From assembly GCA_963718915.1 (NCBI GenBank), contig CAVRAI010000007.1, positions 390,001 through 422,000 of the forward strand: a DNA stretch of 32,000 nucleotides, read 5' to 3'. Positions 13,242 to 27,625 of this stretch are shown piece after piece. The notes under the pieces are model-generated. The model ran no database searches and was not told the origin of the DNA. It saw nothing but the letters and a program-made list of their open reading frames with translations. The stretch's first letter is position 1. Each line of letters opens with the position of its first letter. The DNA comes from an uncultured Chloroflexia bacterium. GTDB lineage: Bacteria > Chloroflexota > Ktedonobacteria > Ktedonobacterales > JADMIN01. Both the position numbers and the translations under genes were made by a program.

Positions 13242-14540
13242 TTATGCTGAACCAGCCGCCGCACGCGCCAGACGGAACCCCCCGCTGTCGTCGAAGCTGA
13301 CCCACCTGCTGCCGTCACGGTAGGCCGCGCGCGTATACTGGGAACCGACGTCCCACGAACCGCCACGCAGCACTCGATTATCAGTGGAATCTGGATTCTC
13401 TCGTCCGTCGTTTTTACGGTAGGGATAGGGCTGGAGGAGGCTGCTCGTCCACTCCCAGACGTTGCCTGCCATATCCTGGACATGATACGGGCTTTCGCCG
13501 GTGGGATAGCGACCGACGGGCGTAGTCCTCCCGATGCCGCTCTCGCTGGTGTTGCAACGTGCCTTGTCGAACGTGTCGCCCCAGGGATAGATGCGGCCAT
13601 CCGTCCCGCGCGCCGCCTTCTCCCATTCTGCCTCGGTCGGCAGCCGCCATGGCTGGCTCGTAAGCTTGGCCAGCCAGGCGCAATATGCGACTGTGTCATT
13701 CCACGAGACACAGACCACAGGATGGTCAGGGTGCGCCTGCTGCGTCGCCCAGTCTACATCATCCCAGCTTTTTTCTGGCTCTCTCACGGCTTTGGCACGG
13801 ACGGCGCAGGCGTATTCAGCCACGGTGACGGGGTGCTGGCCGATGGCGAAGGCGTCCACCTCAACTGGATATTGTGGCGTCTCGTCGTCATCGGCATCTT
13901 TGTCGCGGCTCTTGTCGCTGCCCATGGTGAAGACGCCTGCCGACACCGGACAAATCGGCGGCAGGATGCACTCAACCCCGCCGATGGTATAGCCGCGAAA
14001 GCCAAGGTCATAGTAGGGTTTGGGTGTCAGATGGTGCGCGGGCGCGCTGTTGGCGGGGACGGGCGCCGGGCCGAGTGGCGGCAGGGTATCAGGCGGTGGA
14101 GGAGGTGGTAGCGGATCGCCACCATGCGCGTCGAGGATCACCCGATACGCCCGCATGGCGGCGGCTTGCGGTGGAAATGCCGCTCCGCCCGGCTGCTCGA
14201 TCCGCTTGTAGCCCTCCAGAAGAAGCGGCACATCGCAGGGAATCGCGGTGACGAATTGAATCGTCTCGATGCTCCCTTTGCGCCGTAGCGCCCGCGCCGC
14301 GTCTATTTCGTCGTTGACCCACCCAGAGTTCACCGCTGCCGGGCTGAGAATGGCAATGAAATGCTGACACTTGCGCAGTTCAGCTTCAATCACCTGCCGC
14401 AACGCTCCCCAGCCGAGATTATGCTCGTCGTACCAGACGGCGTTCTCATTGCCCAGCGCCTCGCGGAGCGCCCCCACGAACGCGCGACAGAAGTCATTAT
14501 CGGTGTGGCTGTGGCTGACGAAAACCTGTGGTGTGGCCAT
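13242..14540 (-). CDS. TIR domain - FGE-sulfatase (SUMF1/formylglycine-generating-enzyme-like) domain fusion protein
   Basis: ATG at 14540 is preceded by GAGGGA; the ORF-track start at 14708 adds 56 non-homologous residues. TIR: 'VFVSHSHTDNDFCRAFVGALR...AVWYD...FIAILSPAAVNSGWVNDEIDAA' (E78, codon 14307-14309). Poly-Pro linker: 'PLPPPPPPDTLPPLGPAPVP'. FGE domain hallmarks: 'FTMGSD', 'HPVVCVSWNDTVAYCAWL', 'RLPTEAEWEKAARG', 'AGNVWEWT', 'VLRGGSW', 'GFRLARA'. 432 aa. Confidence 0.9.
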   Translation of the reverse strand: MATPQVFVSHSHTDNDFCRAFVGALREALGNENAVWYDEHNLGWGALRQVIEAELRKCQHFIAILSPAAVNSGWVNDEIDAARALRRKGSIETIQFVTAIPCDVPLLLEGYKRIEQPGGAAFPPQAAAMRAYRVILDAHGGDPLPPPPPPDTLPPLGPAPVPANSAPAHHLTPKPYYDLGFRGYTIGGVECILPPICPVSAGVFTMGSDKSRDKDADDDETPQYPVEVDAFAIGQHPVTVAEYACAVRAKAVREPEKSWDDVDWATQQAHPDHPVVCVSWNDTVAYCAWLAKLTSQPWRLPTEAEWEKAARGTDGRIYPWGDTFDKARCNTSESGIGRTTPVGRYPTGESPYHVQDMAGNVWEWTSSLLQPYPYRKNDGRENPDSTDNRVLRGGSWDVGSQYTRAAYRDGSRWVSFDDSGGFRLARAAAGSA

Positions 14541-14780
14541 ATATCCCTCAACAGCAATCAGCATGAGCGCTACCACGAGCAGTTGGCGCGATGGCTTGCA
14601 CGCACAGTGTAACCCATCTATGGCGCGATGGGAAGAGCGCGGAATGGTTGATAAGCGTTGTGCGCGCCCGTCGCACGATACCGCAACGGACGCGATGAGC
14701 CGCGGCATTCATGCTGCGATGCTGGAGCATCTCCAACCTCGCCCGCGCCAAAAACACCCGCTACATATCTCAACCTTCAC

Positions 14781-21201: not shown

Positions 21202-23289
21202 TTATTGTCGCCACTGGCCACGCTGAGGGTAGTCGAAGTCTTCCTCATTGTCGCGCCGCCGTCGGGCCAGGATCAGGAAGAGCAGCGACGACAGGATGAT
21301 GAACACCGCGATGCTCCCGATAATCACGGGGAAAGTTGGGAAGCCCGAGCTGCCGACAAGTCCAACTGAGGTAGGTGTCGGCGTCGCGCTGCCACCCGTA
21401 ACCGTGGTTGCCGTCGATTGTCCTGGGCCAGTCGTCTCGGTCGGACTCACCGTCACGCTCGCAATCGCGGCGGCGGTCTGCGTGGCAGCCAGGTTATAGA
21501 CCGTCAGCGCGAAACAGTCTGTCGCGCCGGTATTGCCAGCGGAGTCGGCGCCGCGCATACACACCGTATAGCGGCCCGCCGTCAAGCCACTGATATGCGC
21601 CGTAACGCCCTCGGACACCTGATTGAAGGAGCCGTCCGTCGCGCTCATCGCGTGATACGCGCCGCCGTTGATGTTATATTGGCCCGATGCGATGGCGAAG
21701 CTGCCTGTCGTCGAGTCGCTGAGCGTCCCAGTGAGCGTAAAGGCGGTACTCGATGCCGGTGAGGCGGGGGCCGTGAAGACGCTCTTCGCGACTGGCCCGG
21801 CGCAGATGGTTGCCTGCGACGTGCGGAACGGAGAGAACGACACGCTGCCAGTGGCCGCGTTGCCGGTGCCCGATGCGTTCGTCGGCGCGTGTGGCCCGCT
21901 GGCTGTGCCCCACCAGTTCTGCGTGGCGGGCAGGCTCATGCCCGCGGCGACCGTCGCGCCAGCGTTTGAGTTGCTCAGGATGCAGTTCTGGGCCGCGCTC
22001 ACCGACATGCCGGACGACAGCGCATCAGACGTCAGGCCATCCACGAATCCTGAGATGATATTGCTGGTGATGCTGACACCCGCCGAACCCGCGGGGCTGA
22101 CGAGTTCGAAGCCCGCGAGTGGCCGCGAGGAGCCGCTTCCCCGGATCAGGTTGTGGTCAATGACATTGCCGGAGCCAATCGTCCCCTTGTATGAGATGGC
22201 GTAGCCGTGGCCGCTGCTGCTCCCCATATTGAAGGTGTTGTTCTTGATTGTGACGCCCTTGATCTCCGAGGTGACGCTCCCACTCGTCGTACCGAAGCCA
22301 TGCAGGGAGATGGCGGAGTCGTCCGGGGTGCTGGACTGCGTAGCAGCGACACCGGCATTGTTGAATAGGTTGCCGGTGATCGAGATATTGTTATACCGGC
22401 CTACCAGTCCGCCACTGTAGCCCGCGTCAACACCGACCCCCAGGCCGGGATAGTTCCCGAAGACATTGCCCGAGACCACTTGCGGCGCGGTGACATCAAC
22501 GGTGTTGTCGGCGAGGAAGAACACGCCTTCCGCCCACCAGCCAAAGGTTGCTGGACTCGTGCTGATGTCGTTGAGTCCGTGCAGGTTCAGTGTGTTGCCG
22601 GTAAAATTGACGGCCCCTGGATTCCCCTCGATGAGCGCCGCTCGGAACACGCCCCGAAACGAGTTGTTTTTCACCGTGACTGTGGCGGAGTTGCTGGCGA
22701 TGTAGATTGAATCTGTCTGATCCGCCAGCAGCTGAGGGTCGAGTGTGGTATCACCGTAAAAGAGGTTGTTGTTGATGGTGATGACGTCACTCGCATTGTG
22801 ATCGGTGACCGTCATCAGGATTCCGTCGTCGTTCGCGTCATTGACGATCGCGCCCTCGATGGTGAACCCAGACACACTCACATTGCCTGGGGTCGCGGGC
22901 GCGATGGCGATCAGGCCGCCTATCGCCGTACCCGAGGCGGGCGCGCCGTTGATGATGGAGTGACCGACGCCCGCGCCTACCAGATGGATCGGCTTGTTGA
23001 TGGCGATGGGCGCATCTGATGTGCCTGGGCCATACGTTCCCGGCCCAACTTTGATCGTCGCGCCATTCGCCGCTGCGGCGATTGCGGCATTGATGCTGGT
23101 GTAGGCGCATCCTGAGGAGCACACGTCATATGTGGCGGCGCGCGCCTGATGCGCCAGCGCCAGACTCCCGGCAGCCATCGCCAGAAGCAGCCCCACGACA
23201 AGCAATACGCTAGCCCAGCGGGACCGCATTGCTCTGCGCAACGTGCTGATGCCAACGCCCGAAGCATGATGCCCTGAATGAGCGCTCAT
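21202..23289 (-). CDS. Secreted right-handed parallel beta-helix repeat protein (NosD/pectate-lyase-fold-like) with C-terminal membrane anchor
   Basis: ORF 21202-23313. The start is ambiguous: TTG 23313, ATG 23289, or ATG 23229, which begins the signal peptide 'MRSRWASVLLVVGLLLAMAAGSLALAHQARA/ATYD'. 'YDVCSSGCAYTSINAAIAAAANGATIKVGPGTYG' plus many 'I..N.F.G' rungs are typical of PbH1 beta-helices. An Ig-like region is followed by a Thr/Pro-rich stalk, the TM helix 'FPVIIGSIAVFIILSSLLFLILA' and 'RRRRD'. Confidence 0.8.
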   Translation of the reverse strand: MSAHSGHHASGVGISTLRRAMRSRWASVLLVVGLLLAMAAGSLALAHQARAATYDVCSSGCAYTSINAAIAAAANGATIKVGPGTYGPGTSDAPIAINKPIHLVGAGVGHSIINGAPASGTAIGGLIAIAPATPGNVSVSGFTIEGAIVNDANDDGILMTVTDHNASDVITINNNLFYGDTTLDPQLLADQTDSIYIASNSATVTVKNNSFRGVFRAALIEGNPGAVNFTGNTLNLHGLNDISTSPATFGWWAEGVFFLADNTVDVTAPQVVSGNVFGNYPGLGVGVDAGYSGGLVGRYNNISITGNLFNNAGVAATQSSTPDDSAISLHGFGTTSGSVTSEIKGVTIKNNTFNMGSSSGHGYAISYKGTIGSGNVIDHNLIRGSGSSRPLAGFELVSPAGSAGVSITSNIISGFVDGLTSDALSSGMSVSAAQNCILSNSNAGATVAAGMSLPATQNWWGTASGPHAPTNASGTGNAATGSVSFSPFRTSQATICAGPVAKSVFTAPASPASSTAFTLTGTLSDSTTGSFAIASGQYNINGGAYHAMSATDGSFNQVSEGVTAHISGLTAGRYTVCMRGADSAGNTGATDCFALTVYNLAATQTAAAIASVTVSPTETTGPGQSTATTVTGGSATPTPTSVGLVGSSGFPTFPVIIGSIAVFIILSSLLFLILARRRRDNEEDFDYPQRGQWRQ

Positions 23290-23632
23290 CCCTTGATCGT
23301 GGGTAGTACCCAATTGCCTTCACCCCCTCATCATGCCGACCGCAAGCGGACCCCGAAGAACTTATTTCACCATCGTGATATTGGTGGGTAGGAACGCAAG
23401 CGGCCCGGTCGATTGCTAGAAACGGGATGGTTCGATCTCTGTTCACCTGCCGCCGCGCTCACAACGGCGAGCGGCGCCTTTTCGTGTCGTGCTGTGACGC
23501 TTCCCCGTTACCGTCCTCAACGGACAATGTAATGAGCAGTAACGTCTGATTGGTCACAGAGAGGTCACGCTGATCGGTGGGATGACCATCTGAAAAGGCT
23601 GAGGATAATCTTTGCTGGGGAGTCTGCTGGCG

Positions 23633-25267
23633 TCAGGCGGCGCCCAGCCAGGCGATGAGGCATTCGATGCCTTCGTGTGTGCCCGTCACCTCGCGCAGTC
23701 TGCGGCCAAGCGTGCGCATCATCCAGGCGTTGCCGACCTGCGGGTTGTCGCGTAGCTCGCGCATCTCACTGGCCGCGCGGCGGACACGGAGAAGCATCTC
23801 ACGCGTGCAGAGGCCAAACCCTTCGACATATTCGAGGCTGCGGCGTCGGCAAGCCGACTGGGCGGATGGCTCGGCGAGTCGCCCGGCAAGCGCTTCTTCA
23901 GCGCATCCTAGCCGGTGGGCCAGCGCCAATTCGGTCAGCACTCCGGCTGTGGATGCCTCGTCGCAGACCGCCTCTATCTCCGCTGCAACTCTATGCCCCA
24001 TCGTTGCTGCAATGGCCCACGACAATAGCTCAGGGAGCGCCCGCATCTCGTCGTGGCTGGCATACCGCAGCTTAGAGACTGGCGAGTCAGCGTCTCCACC
24101 ACAGACCAGCGCATCATCACCCATTCCAAGCAGCGGAATCGCCTGGGCCAGCGGCGCCAGCCGCGCGGGAGTCTCGCCTGTCGCCAGCGGGAGCAGCGCA
24201 ACGCGCTCATCGCCACGAACGAACTGGCATAGCGCCAGCGCAAACTGGCTGCCCGCCACCAGTGGCTCATGCACACGCCGTAGCGCCCAACCATCCAGCG
24301 CGCCCGCACGCCGCAGGGCGGCAACCTCACCCATGAACTGATCCATGCGGTCGAGATGCGTGCGGAGCGCGGCGATGCTAAGTTGGGGTGTGTTGGTCGC
24401 GCCGAGAAAGGCCAGTGTCTCGCCCTCCAGGCGGAAGAGCAGCTCGCCGCCTTGCGGAGCCGCCACCAGCGCCTCGCCACTACGCGCGGGCAGCCCGCAC
24501 ATCAGCAGCAGCGAGAGCAGCCGCGCCAGTTTTGCGCCGTGGCGCGTCCAGCTTTCCAGCGCATCCTGCCGCCCGTGCAATACCAGTTCGCGCCCGCCCA
24601 ACTCGACCGATACCCCCGTTCGCGCGGCAAGCTCATAGACCCGCTCGGCGTCGGTGGCTGAGAGCGCGCGCGCCAGATTCACCCGTACCTGTGGCGATTG
24701 CGCCAGCACGGCAGCCGCCACCGCGTAGTTGTAGCGTACGATTACATCTTCGGCAGAAGGGCGCGCGCCAGTGCGGACGAGAATCGCCTGCTCCGGCGCG
24801 TCGAGCGTGATGAGTTCATCCAGTTTTCTGGCTTCCAGTCCCAACTCGCGCTCAGCCTCCGCCATGAAGGACGCGCGCTCTTCCCGGCCCGCGAAGCCCG
24901 GCAACTTGCGGTTCACCCGGCGAAACAGCCAGAGCCGCAGTTCGCTGGCGCTGCAAATGCTCTGAGCCGCCAGCGCCGCAATGTCTTCAGGCGCCAGCAC
25001 CTCAGCCAGAGCGCGGGGACGGTGGCGATAATGCGCGCCGAGGCAGGCCACCAGGCATCGCGCCACTTTGTGATCGCCGAACAGCTGGACGATCACCTCA
25101 TCGTCCAGCGCGCGGCGGGGCTGGCCAAGCATGCGCTCCATGTAGCGGATCGCCATCTCGATGCGCGGCGCAAGGCTGGCGTCGCGCAGGAAGCGTGGAT
25201 AGATGACGCGCATGCCATCCTTGCCGCTACGTCGGGTTGTCTTGCGCAGGTCGGTGAGCTTGAGCAT
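23633..25267 (-). CDS. DUF790-family protein (Bax1-like nuclease partner of XPB helicases)
   Basis: 544-aa ORF starting 6 nt after the helicase stop, with AAGGAG embedded in the helicase 3' end. The N-terminus 'MLKLTDLRKTTRRSGKDGMRVIYPRFLRD' resembles the conserved DUF790 N-terminus (ML..dLl......g..i.P.fl). Adjacency to an XPB-type helicase is the family's signature context. Assignment is from memory, not a search. Confidence 0.6.
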   Translation of the reverse strand: MLKLTDLRKTTRRSGKDGMRVIYPRFLRDASLAPRIEMAIRYMERMLGQPRRALDDEVIVQLFGDHKVARCLVACLGAHYRHRPRALAEVLAPEDIAALAAQSICSASELRLWLFRRVNRKLPGFAGREERASFMAEAERELGLEARKLDELITLDAPEQAILVRTGARPSAEDVIVRYNYAVAAAVLAQSPQVRVNLARALSATDAERVYELAARTGVSVELGGRELVLHGRQDALESWTRHGAKLARLLSLLLMCGLPARSGEALVAAPQGGELLFRLEGETLAFLGATNTPQLSIAALRTHLDRMDQFMGEVAALRRAGALDGWALRRVHEPLVAGSQFALALCQFVRGDERVALLPLATGETPARLAPLAQAIPLLGMGDDALVCGGDADSPVSKLRYASHDEMRALPELLSWAIAATMGHRVAAEIEAVCDEASTAGVLTELALAHRLGCAEEALAGRLAEPSAQSACRRRSLEYVEGFGLCTREMLLRVRRAASEMRELRDNPQVGNAWMMRTLGRRLREVTGTHEGIECLIAWLGAA

Positions 25268-25273
25268 CGGATA

Positions 25274-26662
25274 TCACTCCTTGCGGCGTGTCGGTCGCCG
25301 TCGTCGGGCCGCGTTGCGTTCGGTGGTGCGGCGCGAGATGAGTTCGTAGAGCAGCGCTTCTTTCGGTTTTGGCCGCAGCACGCGCCCCAGCCGCTGCACA
25401 TACTCGCGCATCGAGGCGCTGCCGCTGGCGATGATGGCGACGTTGGCATCGGGCACATCCACGCCTTCGTTTAGCACGCGCCCGGTGACAAGCTTGCTCA
25501 ATGCGCCGGAACGGAAGCCCTCCAGGATGGCGCGGCGCTCGGCGGCAGGTGTGCGATAGGTGATGGCGGGCAATAGCAGCGCGCGGCTGATGCGGTCCAC
25601 CATTTCCACGTATTCAGAGAAGACGATCACCTTGTCGTCGGGATGGCGGCACAGCACCTCTTCGATGGCGCCGATCTTGGCGGTGGCGTTGAGGGCGACC
25701 AGCCGCGCCTCCGCATGCGCCCGTAGCGCCCGGCGCGCCTCTGGCTCGAAGCCGCTCCGGCGAACCAGCTCGGCGAACATGCCAGGGCCGCTCCCCAGTT
25801 GCGAGCGGCGCGTCGCCAGATACCAGCGCCACTCCGCCATCAGCCCCTCGTAGCGCACCTCTTCTTCCGGCGTCAGGTCCACATAGATGCGCTTCTCGCG
25901 ATAGGCGGCGATGTGTTTCTGTGCTGAAAGCTCTTCGCTGTCGCGCGTGTAGACCAGCGGGCCGATCAACGCGGTCAGGTCGTGGTGACGACCATCGGCC
26001 CGCTCTAATGTGGCGCTGAGTCCCAGCCGCCAGGGCGCGACAGCCTTACGGGCGATAGACGAATAGCTCTGCGCGGGCAGGTGGTGCGCCTCGTCGAAGA
26101 CGATCAGACCGTAGCGATCCAGTCTGCGCCGGGGCATGGCGGCGGAGTCGTAGGTGATGACTGTGACGTCCCCCGTCTGACGCTCGCCACCGCCGATGAT
26201 GCCGACCGACTCCAGTGGCAGCCCGAGGTGCTCGGCGAGGCCCGCGCGCCACTGGCGCAGTAGCTCGATGGTTGGCACAACCACCAGCGTCCGCACACCC
26301 AGGCGCGTTATCGCGTCGAAGGCGACGACAGTCTTGCCCGCGCCTGTCGGCAGTACGACGACGCCACGCGCGCTCTCACGCAGCCAGGCGTCCACCGCCT
26401 CCCGCTGATACGAGCGTGGGGTGAGCCGAAGTTGTGGCGATTCTGCCAGCGCAAACGGAGCGCGCTGGACATCCGGCGGCAGGAGAGTATTGATCTTGGA
26501 CGAGGCATCGTCTGGCTCATCTGGCTCATCTGGCTCATCTGGCTCATCTGGCTCATCCGATGCGCTCTGCTCATCGAGTGCGGCAAAGAGGTCGGCGGCC
26601 CAGTCATCTTGTGTATCGTCGTCGCCGTGACGCGCCATGGGCGCAGGTCTTTCATGTGGCAT
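25274..26662 (-). CDS. XPB/ERCC3-like superfamily-2 DNA helicase
   Basis: GGAGAA lies 8 nt upstream of the ATG at 26662. Motifs: 'RSYQREAVDAW', motif I 'VLPTGAGKT', motif II 'FDEAHHL' (DEAH), motif III plus an XPB RED-like stretch 'LGLSATLERADGRH', motif VI 'QRLGRVLR'. Acidic N-terminal tail with (DEP)5. 462 aa. Confidence 0.85.
   Translation of the reverse strand: MPHERPAPMARHGDDDTQDDWAADLFAALDEQSASDEPDEPDEPDEPDEPDDASSKINTLLPPDVQRAPFALAESPQLRLTPRSYQREAVDAWLRESARGVVVLPTGAGKTVVAFDAITRLGVRTLVVVPTIELLRQWRAGLAEHLGLPLESVGIIGGGERQTGDVTVITYDSAAMPRRRLDRYGLIVFDEAHHLPAQSYSSIARKAVAPWRLGLSATLERADGRHHDLTALIGPLVYTRDSEELSAQKHIAAYREKRIYVDLTPEEEVRYEGLMAEWRWYLATRRSQLGSGPGMFAELVRRSGFEPEARRALRAHAEARLVALNATAKIGAIEEVLCRHPDDKVIVFSEYVEMVDRISRALLLPAITYRTPAAERRAILEGFRSGALSKLVTGRVLNEGVDVPDANVAIIASGSASMREYVQRLGRVLRPKPKEALLYELISRRTTERNAARRRRPTRRKE
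26511..26555. repeat. Perfect 9-bp tandem repeat x5 inside the helicase gene
   Basis: TCTGGCTCA repeated five times with no mismatch. On the coding (minus) strand it is GATGAGCCA x5 and encodes (DEP)5. Confidence 0.95.
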
Positions 26663-26730
26663 CGCGAGGGTTCTCCGCTGAGGAAAAGACGCCCTCCTCC
26701 AAAACTAGCGAGGAGGGCATGAAATCTATG

Positions 26731-27258
26731 TCAGGCGGCTGCCTGGCCGCCATCATGGCCGTCGTGATCATTGTGGCCGTCGTCATGCGGGTGGGCCAGC
26801 ACGCCCTGCGCGCCCTGCGCCAGCCGCTGCTCGCTGCGTTCGCCAAAGCCATAGTATGGGCGCAACAGCTGATGTTCGGCGGCGCGCGCCAGCTCCTCGA
26901 CGCTGTGAATATCAAGCTGCGACGAGAGCCGGATCGCCGTGCGCGGGCCAACGTGCGGGACGCGCATCAGGTCGCGCACATCCTCCGGCAGCGACTCTTC
27001 GCAGAGATCCTCGTAGAAGGTCATGTGGCCGGTGGTGGCAAGCTCGGTGATCTTGCGGCGCAGACGGTCGCCGAGTCCTGGCGCATCCAACCGCGCGCCC
27101 TGCGCGAGGATGTCCGTCACCTGCACCGGCAGCGCCAGCATGCCACGGGCGGCGTTGCGGTAGGCCTCGATGCGATATGGGTTGCCCTGCTGCATCTCCA
27201 GCAGCGTGGCAATATTGAATAACACATCAGCGATCTGCTGATTGCTGACTGGCTCCAT
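26731..27258 (-). CDS. Stand-alone helix-hairpin-helix protein resembling the N-terminal 8-kDa + fingers region of family-X DNA polymerases
   Basis: ATG at 27258 is preceded by GGAGAGGA. 'NQQIADVLFNIATLLEMQQGNPYRIEAYRNAARGM' matches the PolX 8-kDa domain signature. Two HhH units: 'APGLGDRLRRKITELATTG' and 'LMRVPHVGPRTAIRLSSQLDIHSVEEL'. There is no palm/thumb or PHP domain. The protein ends in a His/Asp-rich tail 'HPHDDGHNDHDGHDGG'. 175 aa. Its stop lies 68 nt upstream of the helicase start. Confidence 0.75.
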   Translation of the reverse strand: MEPVSNQQIADVLFNIATLLEMQQGNPYRIEAYRNAARGMLALPVQVTDILAQGARLDAPGLGDRLRRKITELATTGHMTFYEDLCEESLPEDVRDLMRVPHVGPRTAIRLSSQLDIHSVEELARAAEHQLLRPYYGFGERSEQRLAQGAQGVLAHPHDDGHNDHDGHDGGQAAA

Positions 27259-27328
27259 CGAATCTTCCTCTCCAGGAGCCTGGACAAGCCGAAGGGTCTG
27301 GGTAATCTCGAACATGGTCTGCCTGCGG

Positions 27329-27347
27329 TTTCTAGAACGACTAGAAA
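27329..27347. promoter_or_regulatory. Perfect inverted repeat (operator-like) upstream of the HhH-helicase-DUF790 cassette
   Basis: TTTCTAG-AACGA-CTAGAAA, with 7-bp arms and a 5-bp spacer, lies 71-89 nt upstream of the ATG at 27258 in a relatively AT-rich intergenic region. Confidence 0.35.
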
Positions 27348-27573
27348 ATACGTTCCATTTTACCACATTGCGCCGGTCTTTGCCACCCCACGTGGGTGTC
27401 TTTCCGGCTGTGTCTAATTTCTTTCCGAGCCGGGAAATTATGGAAGGTTCCGCCATTCTATCGGTGCTTTTGGAGGACTATTTCATCCCTATCGTGCAAG
27501 CTGAAAAAGCGCGTATAATCCACTGCGTCAATGACCGAGATTGCGGATAGACAAACGGCATGTGAGTTCTGCC

Positions 27574-27625
27574 AGCCCGCGCAGGCGGGCTTTGCGGCGA
27601 AGCCCTTAGCCGCGGCTTCAGCCGC
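27574..27625 (+). repeat. Possible divergent fourth copy of the structured intergenic element
   Basis: Hairpin AGCCCGC-GCAG-GCGGGCT (27574-27591), followed by GCGGCGAAGCC (27594-27604) pairing with GGCTTCAGCCGC (27614-27625, 1-nt bulge). It has the same two-module layout and a shared GGCGAA core. It ends about 20 nt before the methyltransferase ATG. Confidence 0.4.

Follow-up and report, generated by a model that had tools for sequence, protein, structure and literature searches.

The 32,000-nucleotide (nt) stretch analyzed here, referred to below as the window, belongs to contig CAVRAI010000007.1 of an uncultured soil Chloroflexia bacterium placed in the Ktedonobacterales (assembly GCA_963718915.1). 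On its minus strand lie three co-oriented open reading frames (ORFs), at positions 26731-27258 (within a longest ORF that extends to 27456), 25274-26662, and 23633-25267, which encode a small helix-hairpin-helix (HhH) protein related to the N-terminal region of family X DNA polymerases (PolX), a helicase of the XPB family, and a protein resembling Bax1, the partner of XPB in archaea. We call these genes 1, 2, and 3. The intergenic gaps measure 68 nt between genes 1 and 2 and 6 nt between genes 2 and 3, and the coordinates agree with the original prediction for this DNA, made from the letters alone, which had described a co-oriented three-gene cassette with just these gaps. The G+C content of the window is ~60-67%, and every one of the related loci is named as a Ktedonobacterales or Chloroflexia metagenome-assembled genome (MAG). 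Loci that hold all three genes are referred to as triads, those with the XPB and Bax1-like genes and no adjacent HhH gene as pair-only, and those with the HhH gene and no pair within the fetched flank as HhH-alone.

Gene 2 (25274-26662, minus strand) encodes a 462-amino-acid (aa) protein with Pfam matches to ResIII, Helicase_C, and ERCC3_RAD25_C. Its residues 80-457 align with the XPB of A. fulgidus (AfXPB; E = 2e-99) and XPB2 of S. tokodaii (StXPB2; E = 1.5e-97), both of which have solved structures. Because the alignment with AfXPB (6p66_A residues 91-465) runs unbroken through the thumb (ThM) insertion at ~246-330, gene 2 is, as judged by its sequence, an archaeal-type XPB and not one of the mycobacterial type. 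Mycobacterial XPB (M. tuberculosis Rv0861c) is likewise an XPB-family superfamily 2 helicase in a bacterium, but it has no thumb insertion, and its N-terminal domain of 120-130 aa is one that eukaryotic XPB has too (PMC3353954). The helicase motifs of gene 2 are intact (PTGAGKT at residue 105, DEAHH at residue 190, SAT within SATLERADG at residue 216, and QRLGRVLR at residue 423). These motifs, the AfXPB alignment, and the ERCC3_RAD25_C domain, which also answers a proposed hidden Markov model (HMM) search for ERCC3/XPB, confirm the earlier assignment of an XPB-like helicase from its DEAH and SATLERADGR motifs. The NCBIfam XPB family (NF045503) is the best family for the protein, at 241 bits (E = 2e-71) and under the 610-bit equivalog cutoff. 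The RED motif, which has been called absolutely conserved in XPB (PMC3353954), reads R-A-D across the family and R-S-D in loci L025 and L083, the Arg and the last Asp being kept and the middle acid lost. Because StXPB2 itself has R-D-D in place of RED (PMC7672443), R-A-D can be taken as a mild variant of the motif.

The first 79 residues of gene 2 are acidic and of low complexity, with an isoelectric point (pI) of 4.05. No damage-recognition domain was found in the protein, as these residues align neither with AfXPB residues 1-90 nor with positions 1-178 of the NCBIfam XPB profile, and Pfam returned no match for the N-terminal 86 aa of XPB. Within this otherwise variable region lies a motif, DLFxALDE (DLFAALDE in the window, at residues 24-31 and positions 26570-26593), that is conserved across the family and kept in pair-only loci too. 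There is a loose similarity between the xxDLF of this motif and the last residues of beta-clamp-binding motifs (QL[SD]LF).

Gene 3 (23633-25267, minus strand) encodes a 544-aa protein, and a Bax1-like gene adjoins XPB downstream in every locus with enough upstream sequence. The original prediction staked its case on this protein scoring as DUF790 (PF05626), which it does, with 53.4 bits against a gathering cutoff of 28.8 bits; the match is limited to profile positions 15-232 of 387, the N-terminal 60%. When an AlphaFold2 (AF2) model built from 30 homologs (predicted local distance difference test [pLDDT] score of 88, predicted template modeling [pTM] score of 0.82) was compared with the PDB by Foldseek, the top 8 matches, at E values of 1e-10 to 7e-14, were all Bax1 chains (S. 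tokodaii, P. furiosus, and A. fulgidus). By its Pfam match and the four-domain Bax1 fold of the model, gene 3 encodes a true Bax1 homolog. In archaea, the N-terminal domain of Bax1 binds XPB and modulates its ATPase (PMC7293015, PMC7672443); this domain is the best-conserved part of gene 3, and the Cas2-like domain is conserved too. The C-terminal region contains a winged-helix-like segment, its last 122 aa gave no Pfam match, and the protein ends in -GAA. As the earlier reading had it, the ribosome-binding site of gene 3 is embedded in the 3' end of the helicase gene: the Shine-Dalgarno sequence AAGGAG lies at 25277-25282 (minus strand), in the last codons of gene 2. This embedded site and the 6-nt gap from stop codon to ATG apparently fit translational coupling of gene 3 to gene 2.

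While the DUF790-like N terminus of gene 3 held up, its nuclease motifs are degenerate. The acidic nuclease motifs of A. fulgidus Bax1 (AfBax1) comprise E275, D305, and E318, and D305 corresponds to D301 of SsBax1, whose mutation abolishes cleavage by SsXPB-Bax1 (PMC7293015). In the family profile of gene 3, residues 323-413 align with residues 274-362 of S. tokodaii Bax1 (StBax1), which places StBax1 GWKIIREPEPLV, IPDF, and VYVEIVG opposite the family sequences GWxLRRAxEPLV, VxPALF, and RVxLVPAP, respectively. The Asp-Glu spacing is 13 residues in StBax1, as it is for D305-E318 in AfBax1. At the corresponding family positions, 345-346 for the catalytic Asp and 357 for the second Glu, 30 of 30 members are non-acidic (A/T/V/M/G/L and A/P/T/L/S, respectively). 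Because no acidic residue is conserved anywhere at 339-365 in the 30 members, in any register within ±2, the finding that the Asp and the second Glu are lost is insensitive to the register chosen. The first acidic motif, E334, is kept in 22 of 30 members, and the predicted strands and helices of the region match the PD-(D/E)XK core. Read from these alignments, the Bax1-like proteins form a family of apparent pseudo-nucleases that have lost the canonical catalytic Asp and Glu, which leaves the helicase-nuclease premise of the original prediction unsupported. The two most divergent Bax1-like relatives recovered (L074 and L082) have PEL where Bax1 has PDF (motif II) and lack the motif III Glu, a pattern suggestive of an ancestral active site that was lost step by step.

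It could still be argued that the module works as the canonical helicase-nuclease of archaea does, with XPB opening a bubble, the Bax1-like protein cutting through relocated catalytic residues or the N-terminal site known from the Bax1 of A. fulgidus and T. acidophilum, and the HhH protein acting as a sensor of damage or ends that replaces the damage-recognition domain. The retained Bax1 fold and domain order, the frequent presence of E334, and the lack of a damage-recognition domain in XPB favor such an arrangement. Archaeal Bax1 is also reported to have a second, N-terminal nuclease site, and D156 and N180, both invariant in the Bax1-like family, align near residues E135 and N156 of that site in AfBax1. 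The archaeal N-terminal site is masked by XPB binding, however (PMC7293015), only one of its two acids aligns with a conserved acid here, and the Asp on which SsXPB-Bax1 cleavage depends is missing, with the second Glu, from all 30 members. We therefore regard a cutting machine of the archaeal kind as quite improbable.

Gene 1 encodes what appears from its sequence to be a PolX-derived DNA-binding protein that is neither a polymerase nor an exonuclease. It matches Pfam HHH_8 (1e-16) and HHH_5 (6e-10), the PolX N-terminal domains for which an HMM search had been suggested, and aligns with residues 2-148 of T. thermophilus PolX (TthPolX; E = 1e-18). Its predicted model (pLDDT of 87) matches solely the N termini of PolX, Pol beta, and Pol lambda in Foldseek. 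In order, the protein consists of the peptide MFEITQTLRL, a short linker, the PolX 8-kDa domain, a fingers subdomain with three HhH motifs (PGLG, HVGP, and GFGERS), a disordered His/Asp tail, and a terminal -AA. The third HhH motif is of the GFGx(K/R) type, which is prokaryote specific in PolX (PMC3479172). Beyond this motif the PolX-like sequence ends: no palm with its catalytic triad, no thumb, and no PHP domain was found in the protein, which is why we do not consider it a polymerase. Its length is 194 aa, compared with ~570 aa for PolX, and its NCBIfam PolX score is 59 bits against a cutoff of 426 bits. The family has 345 homologs of ~180-200 aa, and the protein is therefore no accidental one-off truncation. 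A 2022 survey of prokaryotic PolX diversity reports degraded palm and fingers domains and, in the portion of it available, describes no N-terminal-only proteins (PMC9226535).

The residues expected of a Pol beta-type lyase are largely in place. K69, the equivalent of the deoxyribose phosphate (dRP) lyase nucleophile K72 of Pol beta, is a Lys in 23 of 24 members, and R65, R29, and Y33, equivalent to the 5'-phosphate pocket residues K68, K35, and Y39, are R, R, and Y in 24 of 24; the equivalents of K60 and K84 are not conserved in the family. The HhH protein thus keeps the lysine and basic pocket of a Pol beta-type dRP/apurinic-apyrimidinic (AP) lyase, the lyase activity itself being only putative. 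It shares with the N termini of PolX, Pol beta, and Pol lambda the HHH_8 and HHH_5 domains, the three HhH motifs, the lyase lysine, and the basic pocket residues, and it differs from PolX in lacking palm, thumb, and PHP and in adding a conserved MFQFTQSVQL-like peptide and a variable tail that ends in -AA.

That peptide also fixes the start of the gene. The original prediction had described a 175-aa protein made up of the 8-kDa and HhH fingers region alone; the domains and the absence of palm and PHP were right, and the length was not. Because an N-terminal peptide, MF[QE][FI]TQ[ST][VL][QR]L, is conserved within the 19 residues upstream of the start at 27258, and kept in nearly all loci, including a Dictyobacter outgroup, we reassign the start to the ATG at 27315, 57 nt further upstream, rejecting the one at 27258 despite its good Shine-Dalgarno sequence. 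Gene 1 accordingly spans 26731-27315 (minus strand), and its product has 194 aa, as does the database protein P0001. The peptide itself (27286-27315, minus strand), which is separated from the 8-kDa domain by a variable linker, occurs in triad and HhH-alone loci alike and is absent from the distant L083 and L087; it is probably a short interaction motif. The His/Asp-rich tail fared worse. It had been proposed as a putative metal-binding element, and we rejected it as a conserved metal site: it is found in the closest relatives only, varies in length, and is predicted to be disordered.

To place the three genes in a wider context, we surveyed their neighborhoods, as had been proposed for gene 1. 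A scan seeded with the HhH protein, with one genome per species, gave 23 Ktedonobacterales loci, and in 10 of the 21 that were informative (L007-L012, L017, and L024-L026) the HhH, XPB, and Bax1-like genes follow one another on one strand. Four of these loci (L017 and L024-L026), with proteins 64-70% (HhH), ~75% (XPB), and 44-48% (Bax1-like) identical to those of the window, share no flanking gene with the window or with each other. A second count, seeded with the Bax1-like protein and covering metagenome loci with enough upstream DNA, found the triad in 12 of 17 informative lineages, that is, an HhH gene upstream in ~70% of informative pairs. The triad also occurs on two long contigs (L031 and L033); a further long contig has the pair only, beside insertion sequence (IS) elements. 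Among divergent members, L083 (70% G+C) has an HhH protein ~50-51% identical to that of the window, with a 1-nt gap to XPB and then a Bax1-like gene, and the P0245 locus has an HhH protein 46% identical, with an 8-nt gap to XPB and then a 490-aa gene without any Pfam match. In all, over 25 loci keep the triad, their flanks being unrelated and the HhH identity falling as low as 46-51%. In the HhH tree, it appears in two clades with HhH-alone clades between them, a pattern compatible with a triad that is ancestral and a pair that was later lost or relocated. The association between the HhH gene and the pair is far beyond chance and survives rearrangement, yet it is not obligate in either direction. 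At L049 (2140-2590), tblastn matches the HhH gene in front of XPB as two segments that overlap and lie in different frames, the result of either a frameshift that has made it a pseudogene or a faulty assembly.

The 260 nt preceding each HhH gene were searched for GAAC-N4-GTTC, the Gram-positive motif that serves as the LexA site in Firmicutes and Actinobacteria (PMC3323433). Many loci have a perfect site, and most of the others have one with a single mismatch. In the window, a LexA-type operator, GAACGTATTTTC, lies at 27344-27355 (minus strand), 28 nt before the ATG at 27315, and abuts a predicted extended -10 hexamer (TAAAAT with TG before it, at 27357-27362, minus strand). The matching -35 hexamer (GTGGCA, at 27381-27386, minus strand) comes from a consensus scan (9/12 matches with the extended TG) and is a prediction only. 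L083 has the same layout, with a TAGAAT -10 hexamer and a perfect box directly after it. An upstream box with at most one mismatch is found in 16 of the 23 species-level loci. Perfect boxes number 8 across the 23 genome loci (399 kb in total), and 6 of these fall within the 272-nt stretches upstream of HhH genes, which make up 1.6% of the sequence (~190-fold enrichment); the other two are intragenic and uninformative. In triads, the box precedes HhH in 19 of 24 cases and falls between HhH and XPB in 0 of 24, while in pair-only lineages it lies at the start of XPB in every one (in L074, for example, a perfect box sits 24 nt before XPB). The simplest reading of this placement is one LexA-controlled unit in which HhH, when present, is the first gene. 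A palindromic box that overlaps the promoter of a DNA-repair operon is also the arrangement seen in LexA regulons of Gram-positive-type bacteria. The LexA of Dehalococcoides reportedly uses this same box. To our knowledge, neither XPB nor Bax1 nor a PolX fragment is a member of any known SOS regulon. Further upstream of the HhH gene, a candidate CRISPR repeat (27573-27596, minus strand) was rejected, being a single copy with no array and scoring 34.1 bits for CRISPR-DR28 against a gathering cutoff of 35 in Rfam; a G+C-rich palindrome or a fortuitous match is the probable explanation.

Between genes 1 and 2, the 68-nt spacer contains a GC-rich hairpin (arms at 26710-26720 and 26689-26699) followed by GTCTTTTCC, the whole element spanning 26682-26720 on the minus strand. 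RNAfold gives the spacer -25.5 kcal/mol in the window and ~-25 to -30 in its clade, where a G+C stem of 10-11 bp is followed by TCTTTTTCC. Eight loci of this clade have the stem in common and differ in the loops, and no compensatory changes were found in the hairpin, the sequences being too similar to show covariation. The hairpin resembles an attenuator or an intrinsic terminator, although a consensus terminator scan did not flag it, its loop being longer than 8 nt and its T run short. One possible function is that of an attenuator or transcript stabilizer that gives more HhH than XPB and Bax1-like protein. In other clades, the spacers range from ~14 to 300 nt, with start-codon choices that are approximate, and in some lineages they are 1-15 nt. 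In a consensus fold of 26663-26690 (minus strand), the Shine-Dalgarno sequence of XPB (GGAGAA, 26671-26676) is base paired with the T-rich tract that follows the main hairpin, with no covariation; this pairing may form a second layer of translational control.

A further feature common to two of the three proteins is their C-terminal Ala-Ala. Among the 120 HhH and 120 Bax1-like homologs listed (P0001-P0240), -AA ends 111 of the 120 HhH proteins, with -VA in 8 more, and 116 of the 120 Bax1-like proteins, even though the tails of the HhH proteins differ widely in length and composition. For comparison, the ending occurs in 1.2% of the remaining ORFs of these loci and in 1 of 26 representatives of full-length PolX. 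In the window, the codons concerned lie at 26731-26736 (gene 1) and 23633-23641 (gene 3), and XPB has no -AA end. The shared ending resembles a degron of the ssrA type or else a docking peptide common to both families, and it recalls the SOS proteins that are degraded by ClpXP. E. coli RecN is such an SOS protein with a C-terminal Ala-Ala.

The original prediction had left open whether the cassette serves dedicated repair or defense, and the evidence now bears on the two quite differently. As an antiphage or antiplasmid system, the XPB-like helicase and a DNA-binding adaptor would target foreign nucleic acid, and the helicase does partially match PbeA (5e-49) and TIGR04095, the Dnd restriction helicase; these matches, like those to DpdF and similar models, cover only the shared helicase core. 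PADLOC found no complete system in the window and no match at all for the HhH and Bax1-like proteins. No Bax1-like gene was found on plasmids or phages, and the plasmid matches to the HhH protein were full-length polX genes. The neighbors are unrelated genes of housekeeping type that differ between loci, with no defense-island context, and there is no sign of an active nuclease effector. Repair is indicated instead by the LexA-type operator and by the descent of the proteins from PolX, XPB, and Bax1, and we give a defense role almost no credence. Because a single LexA-type operator heads the unit, repair is favored, and the system is probably a variant of XPB-Bax1 that acts as an SOS-induced repair module.

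Taking these lines together, we lean, with somewhat more belief than doubt, toward a DNA-damage-inducible operon of the Ktedonobacterales in which a LexA-type promoter drives an HhH protein, XPB, and a catalytically degenerate Bax1. The domain identities, the loss of the active site, the gene order kept through rearrangement of the flanks, and the position of the operator are what we observe; the sequence of events is a proposal. Cleavage of LexA would lead to production of all three proteins. XPB and the inactive Bax1 would form a complex as they do in archaea, in which Bax1 would be a junction-binding, ATPase-modulating subunit and not a cutter, and this complex would open or translocate on damaged DNA. 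The HhH protein would bind nicks, gaps, or 5'-phosphate/5'-dRP ends and, with K69, may also cut abasic or dRP sites by beta-elimination. In this way it would mark or create an entry point, with resynthesis left to other enzymes, such as Pol I, and it could act as a general SOS factor that works without the pair as well. The spacer hairpin probably sets a higher ratio of HhH to XPB/Bax1, and the -AA ends of the HhH and Bax1-like proteins suggest their ssrA-type proteolytic removal once the response ends.

Several points weigh against this explanation. The box in the window departs from GAAC-N4-GTTC at one position, and the use of this motif by the LexA of Ktedonobacterales is extrapolated from Firmicutes and Actinobacteria and from Dehalococcoides. 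Owing to the terminator-like hairpin, cotranscription of HhH with XPB may be only partial. The HhH core is acidic overall (pI 5.4), and an intact K69, as a sequence feature, is no proof of lyase activity. With one of the two acidic residues of the N-terminal nuclease site apparently retained as D156, the Bax1-like protein may be capable of some cleavage. The genes can also be found apart: the HhH gene lacks the pair within the fetched flank in 11 of 21 informative loci, which have the same LexA-type box, N-terminal peptide, and -AA end, and the pair lacks an adjacent HhH gene in 5 of 17 informative metagenome lineages. Since the HhH gene stands alone with the same box and terminal motifs, it does not need the pair, and the idea of a dedicated adaptor for the helicase, as first put forward, is not supported, given that the same ortholog, operator, and motifs stand alone in about half of the genomes and that pair-only loci exist.

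The separate occurrences raise the possibility that the genes share a location for regulatory reasons only, with the HhH protein an independent SOS repair factor (a dRP lyase or a gap binder for Pol I-dependent base excision repair) and XPB/Bax1-like a separate SOS module under the same LexA promoter. Both parts can carry a box of their own, HhH in about half of the genomes and the pair in pair-only loci; HhH has the same terminal motifs whether the pair is present or not; and a terminator-like hairpin lies between HhH and XPB. HhH-alone genes are often convergent with polA, which encodes DNA polymerase I (L018 and L020-L023), and a 39%-identical short HhH relative (L087) follows xseB, which encodes the small subunit of exonuclease VII. 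Both are DNA-repair contexts, as one would expect if PolX N-terminal proteins on their own had a general role in repair; no downstream element common to the HhH-alone genes was found. No Bax1-like gene appeared on the long contigs of HhH-alone genomes among the 120 matches listed, which is only suggestive of the absence of the pair elsewhere in those genomes. On the other side, the order HhH-XPB-Bax1-like is preserved even where both flanks are completely rearranged and HhH identity has dropped to 46-50%, the gaps shrink to 1-15 nt in some lineages, HhH lies upstream in ~70% of informative pairs, and HhH and Bax1-like proteins have the unusual -AA terminus in common. We consider mere colocation possible but rather doubtful.

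The damage-inducible operon could also be taken a step further, to an unrecognized bacterial SOS pathway in which the pseudo-nuclease Bax1 and XPB form a DNA-opening motor while scission and end recognition pass to the PolX 8-kDa/HhH lyase protein. That protein would dock through its N-terminal peptide, possibly on the DLFxALDE tail of XPB, and the machine would be cleared by proteolysis at -AA. In this complete form, the scheme is speculative, and we think it unlikely.

The closest known relatives of the system are the archaeal XPB-Bax1 complexes of A. fulgidus and S. tokodaii (PDB entries 6P66, 6P4F, 6P4O, and 6P4W) and of P. furiosus (8GY8). They have in common with it the adjacent, co-oriented order of XPB and then Bax1, a thumb-bearing XPB (E = 2e-99), the same Bax1 fold and domain order (Foldseek probability of 1.00), and an XPB-binding N-terminal domain that is the best-conserved part of the Bax1-like protein. 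The system described here differs in its bacterial host, a member of the Chloroflexota; in a Bax1-like protein that lacks the catalytic Asp and second Glu of PD-(D/E)XK, is longer (544 aa), and ends in -AA; in an XPB with R-A-D for RED and an acidic tail bearing DLFxALDE in place of the damage-recognition domain; and in the HhH gene upstream and the LexA-type operator. As of 2012, no Bax1 complex had been identified in bacteria (PMC3353954).

Around the cassette in the window are genes for a methyltransferase of small-molecule type, a BON protein, a pentapeptide protein, and a major facilitator superfamily (MFS) transporter. Directly downstream, a 703-aa protein (21202-23313, minus strand) without a Pfam match has a signal- or transmembrane-like N terminus, a C-terminal transmembrane segment, and Gly/Ser/Thr/Asn-rich repeats, and it is syntenic in two of the closest relatives, L007 and L009. 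Nine kilobases from the cassette and not linked to it, a 488-aa protein (13242-14708, minus strand) shows an unusual fusion of a TIR domain (TIR_2, 2e-14; ThsB_TIR, 3e-4) with an FGE-sulfatase (SUMF1-like) domain; it might be a signaling or defense protein.

In the literature searched, no HhH or PolX partner of XPB-Bax1 has been described and, as the original prediction had supposed, no three-component version; the combination of an HhH protein, an archaeal-type XPB, and a degenerate Bax1 is one that these sources do not contain. XPB-Bax1 serves as a prokaryotic model of how XPB, the motor of TFIIH, couples DNA opening to incision, and its cellular role is unclear even in archaea. Apparent LexA control of an XPB-Bax1 module gives it a testable physiological context, that of DNA damage, and the lost active site separates a structural or regulatory role of Bax1 from cutting. 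The probable operon adds a PolX-derived, putatively gap- or end-binding protein, genetically linked to XPB-Bax1, as a third component, and the C-terminal Ala-Ala signal shared by two of the three proteins can now be pointed out as well. Because some Ktedonobacteria are culturable, induction, deletion, and biochemical tests are feasible. For the Ktedonobacterales themselves, the analysis brings out a family of proteins that consist of the PolX N-terminal region alone and whose genes are apparently core, widespread SOS genes of the order.

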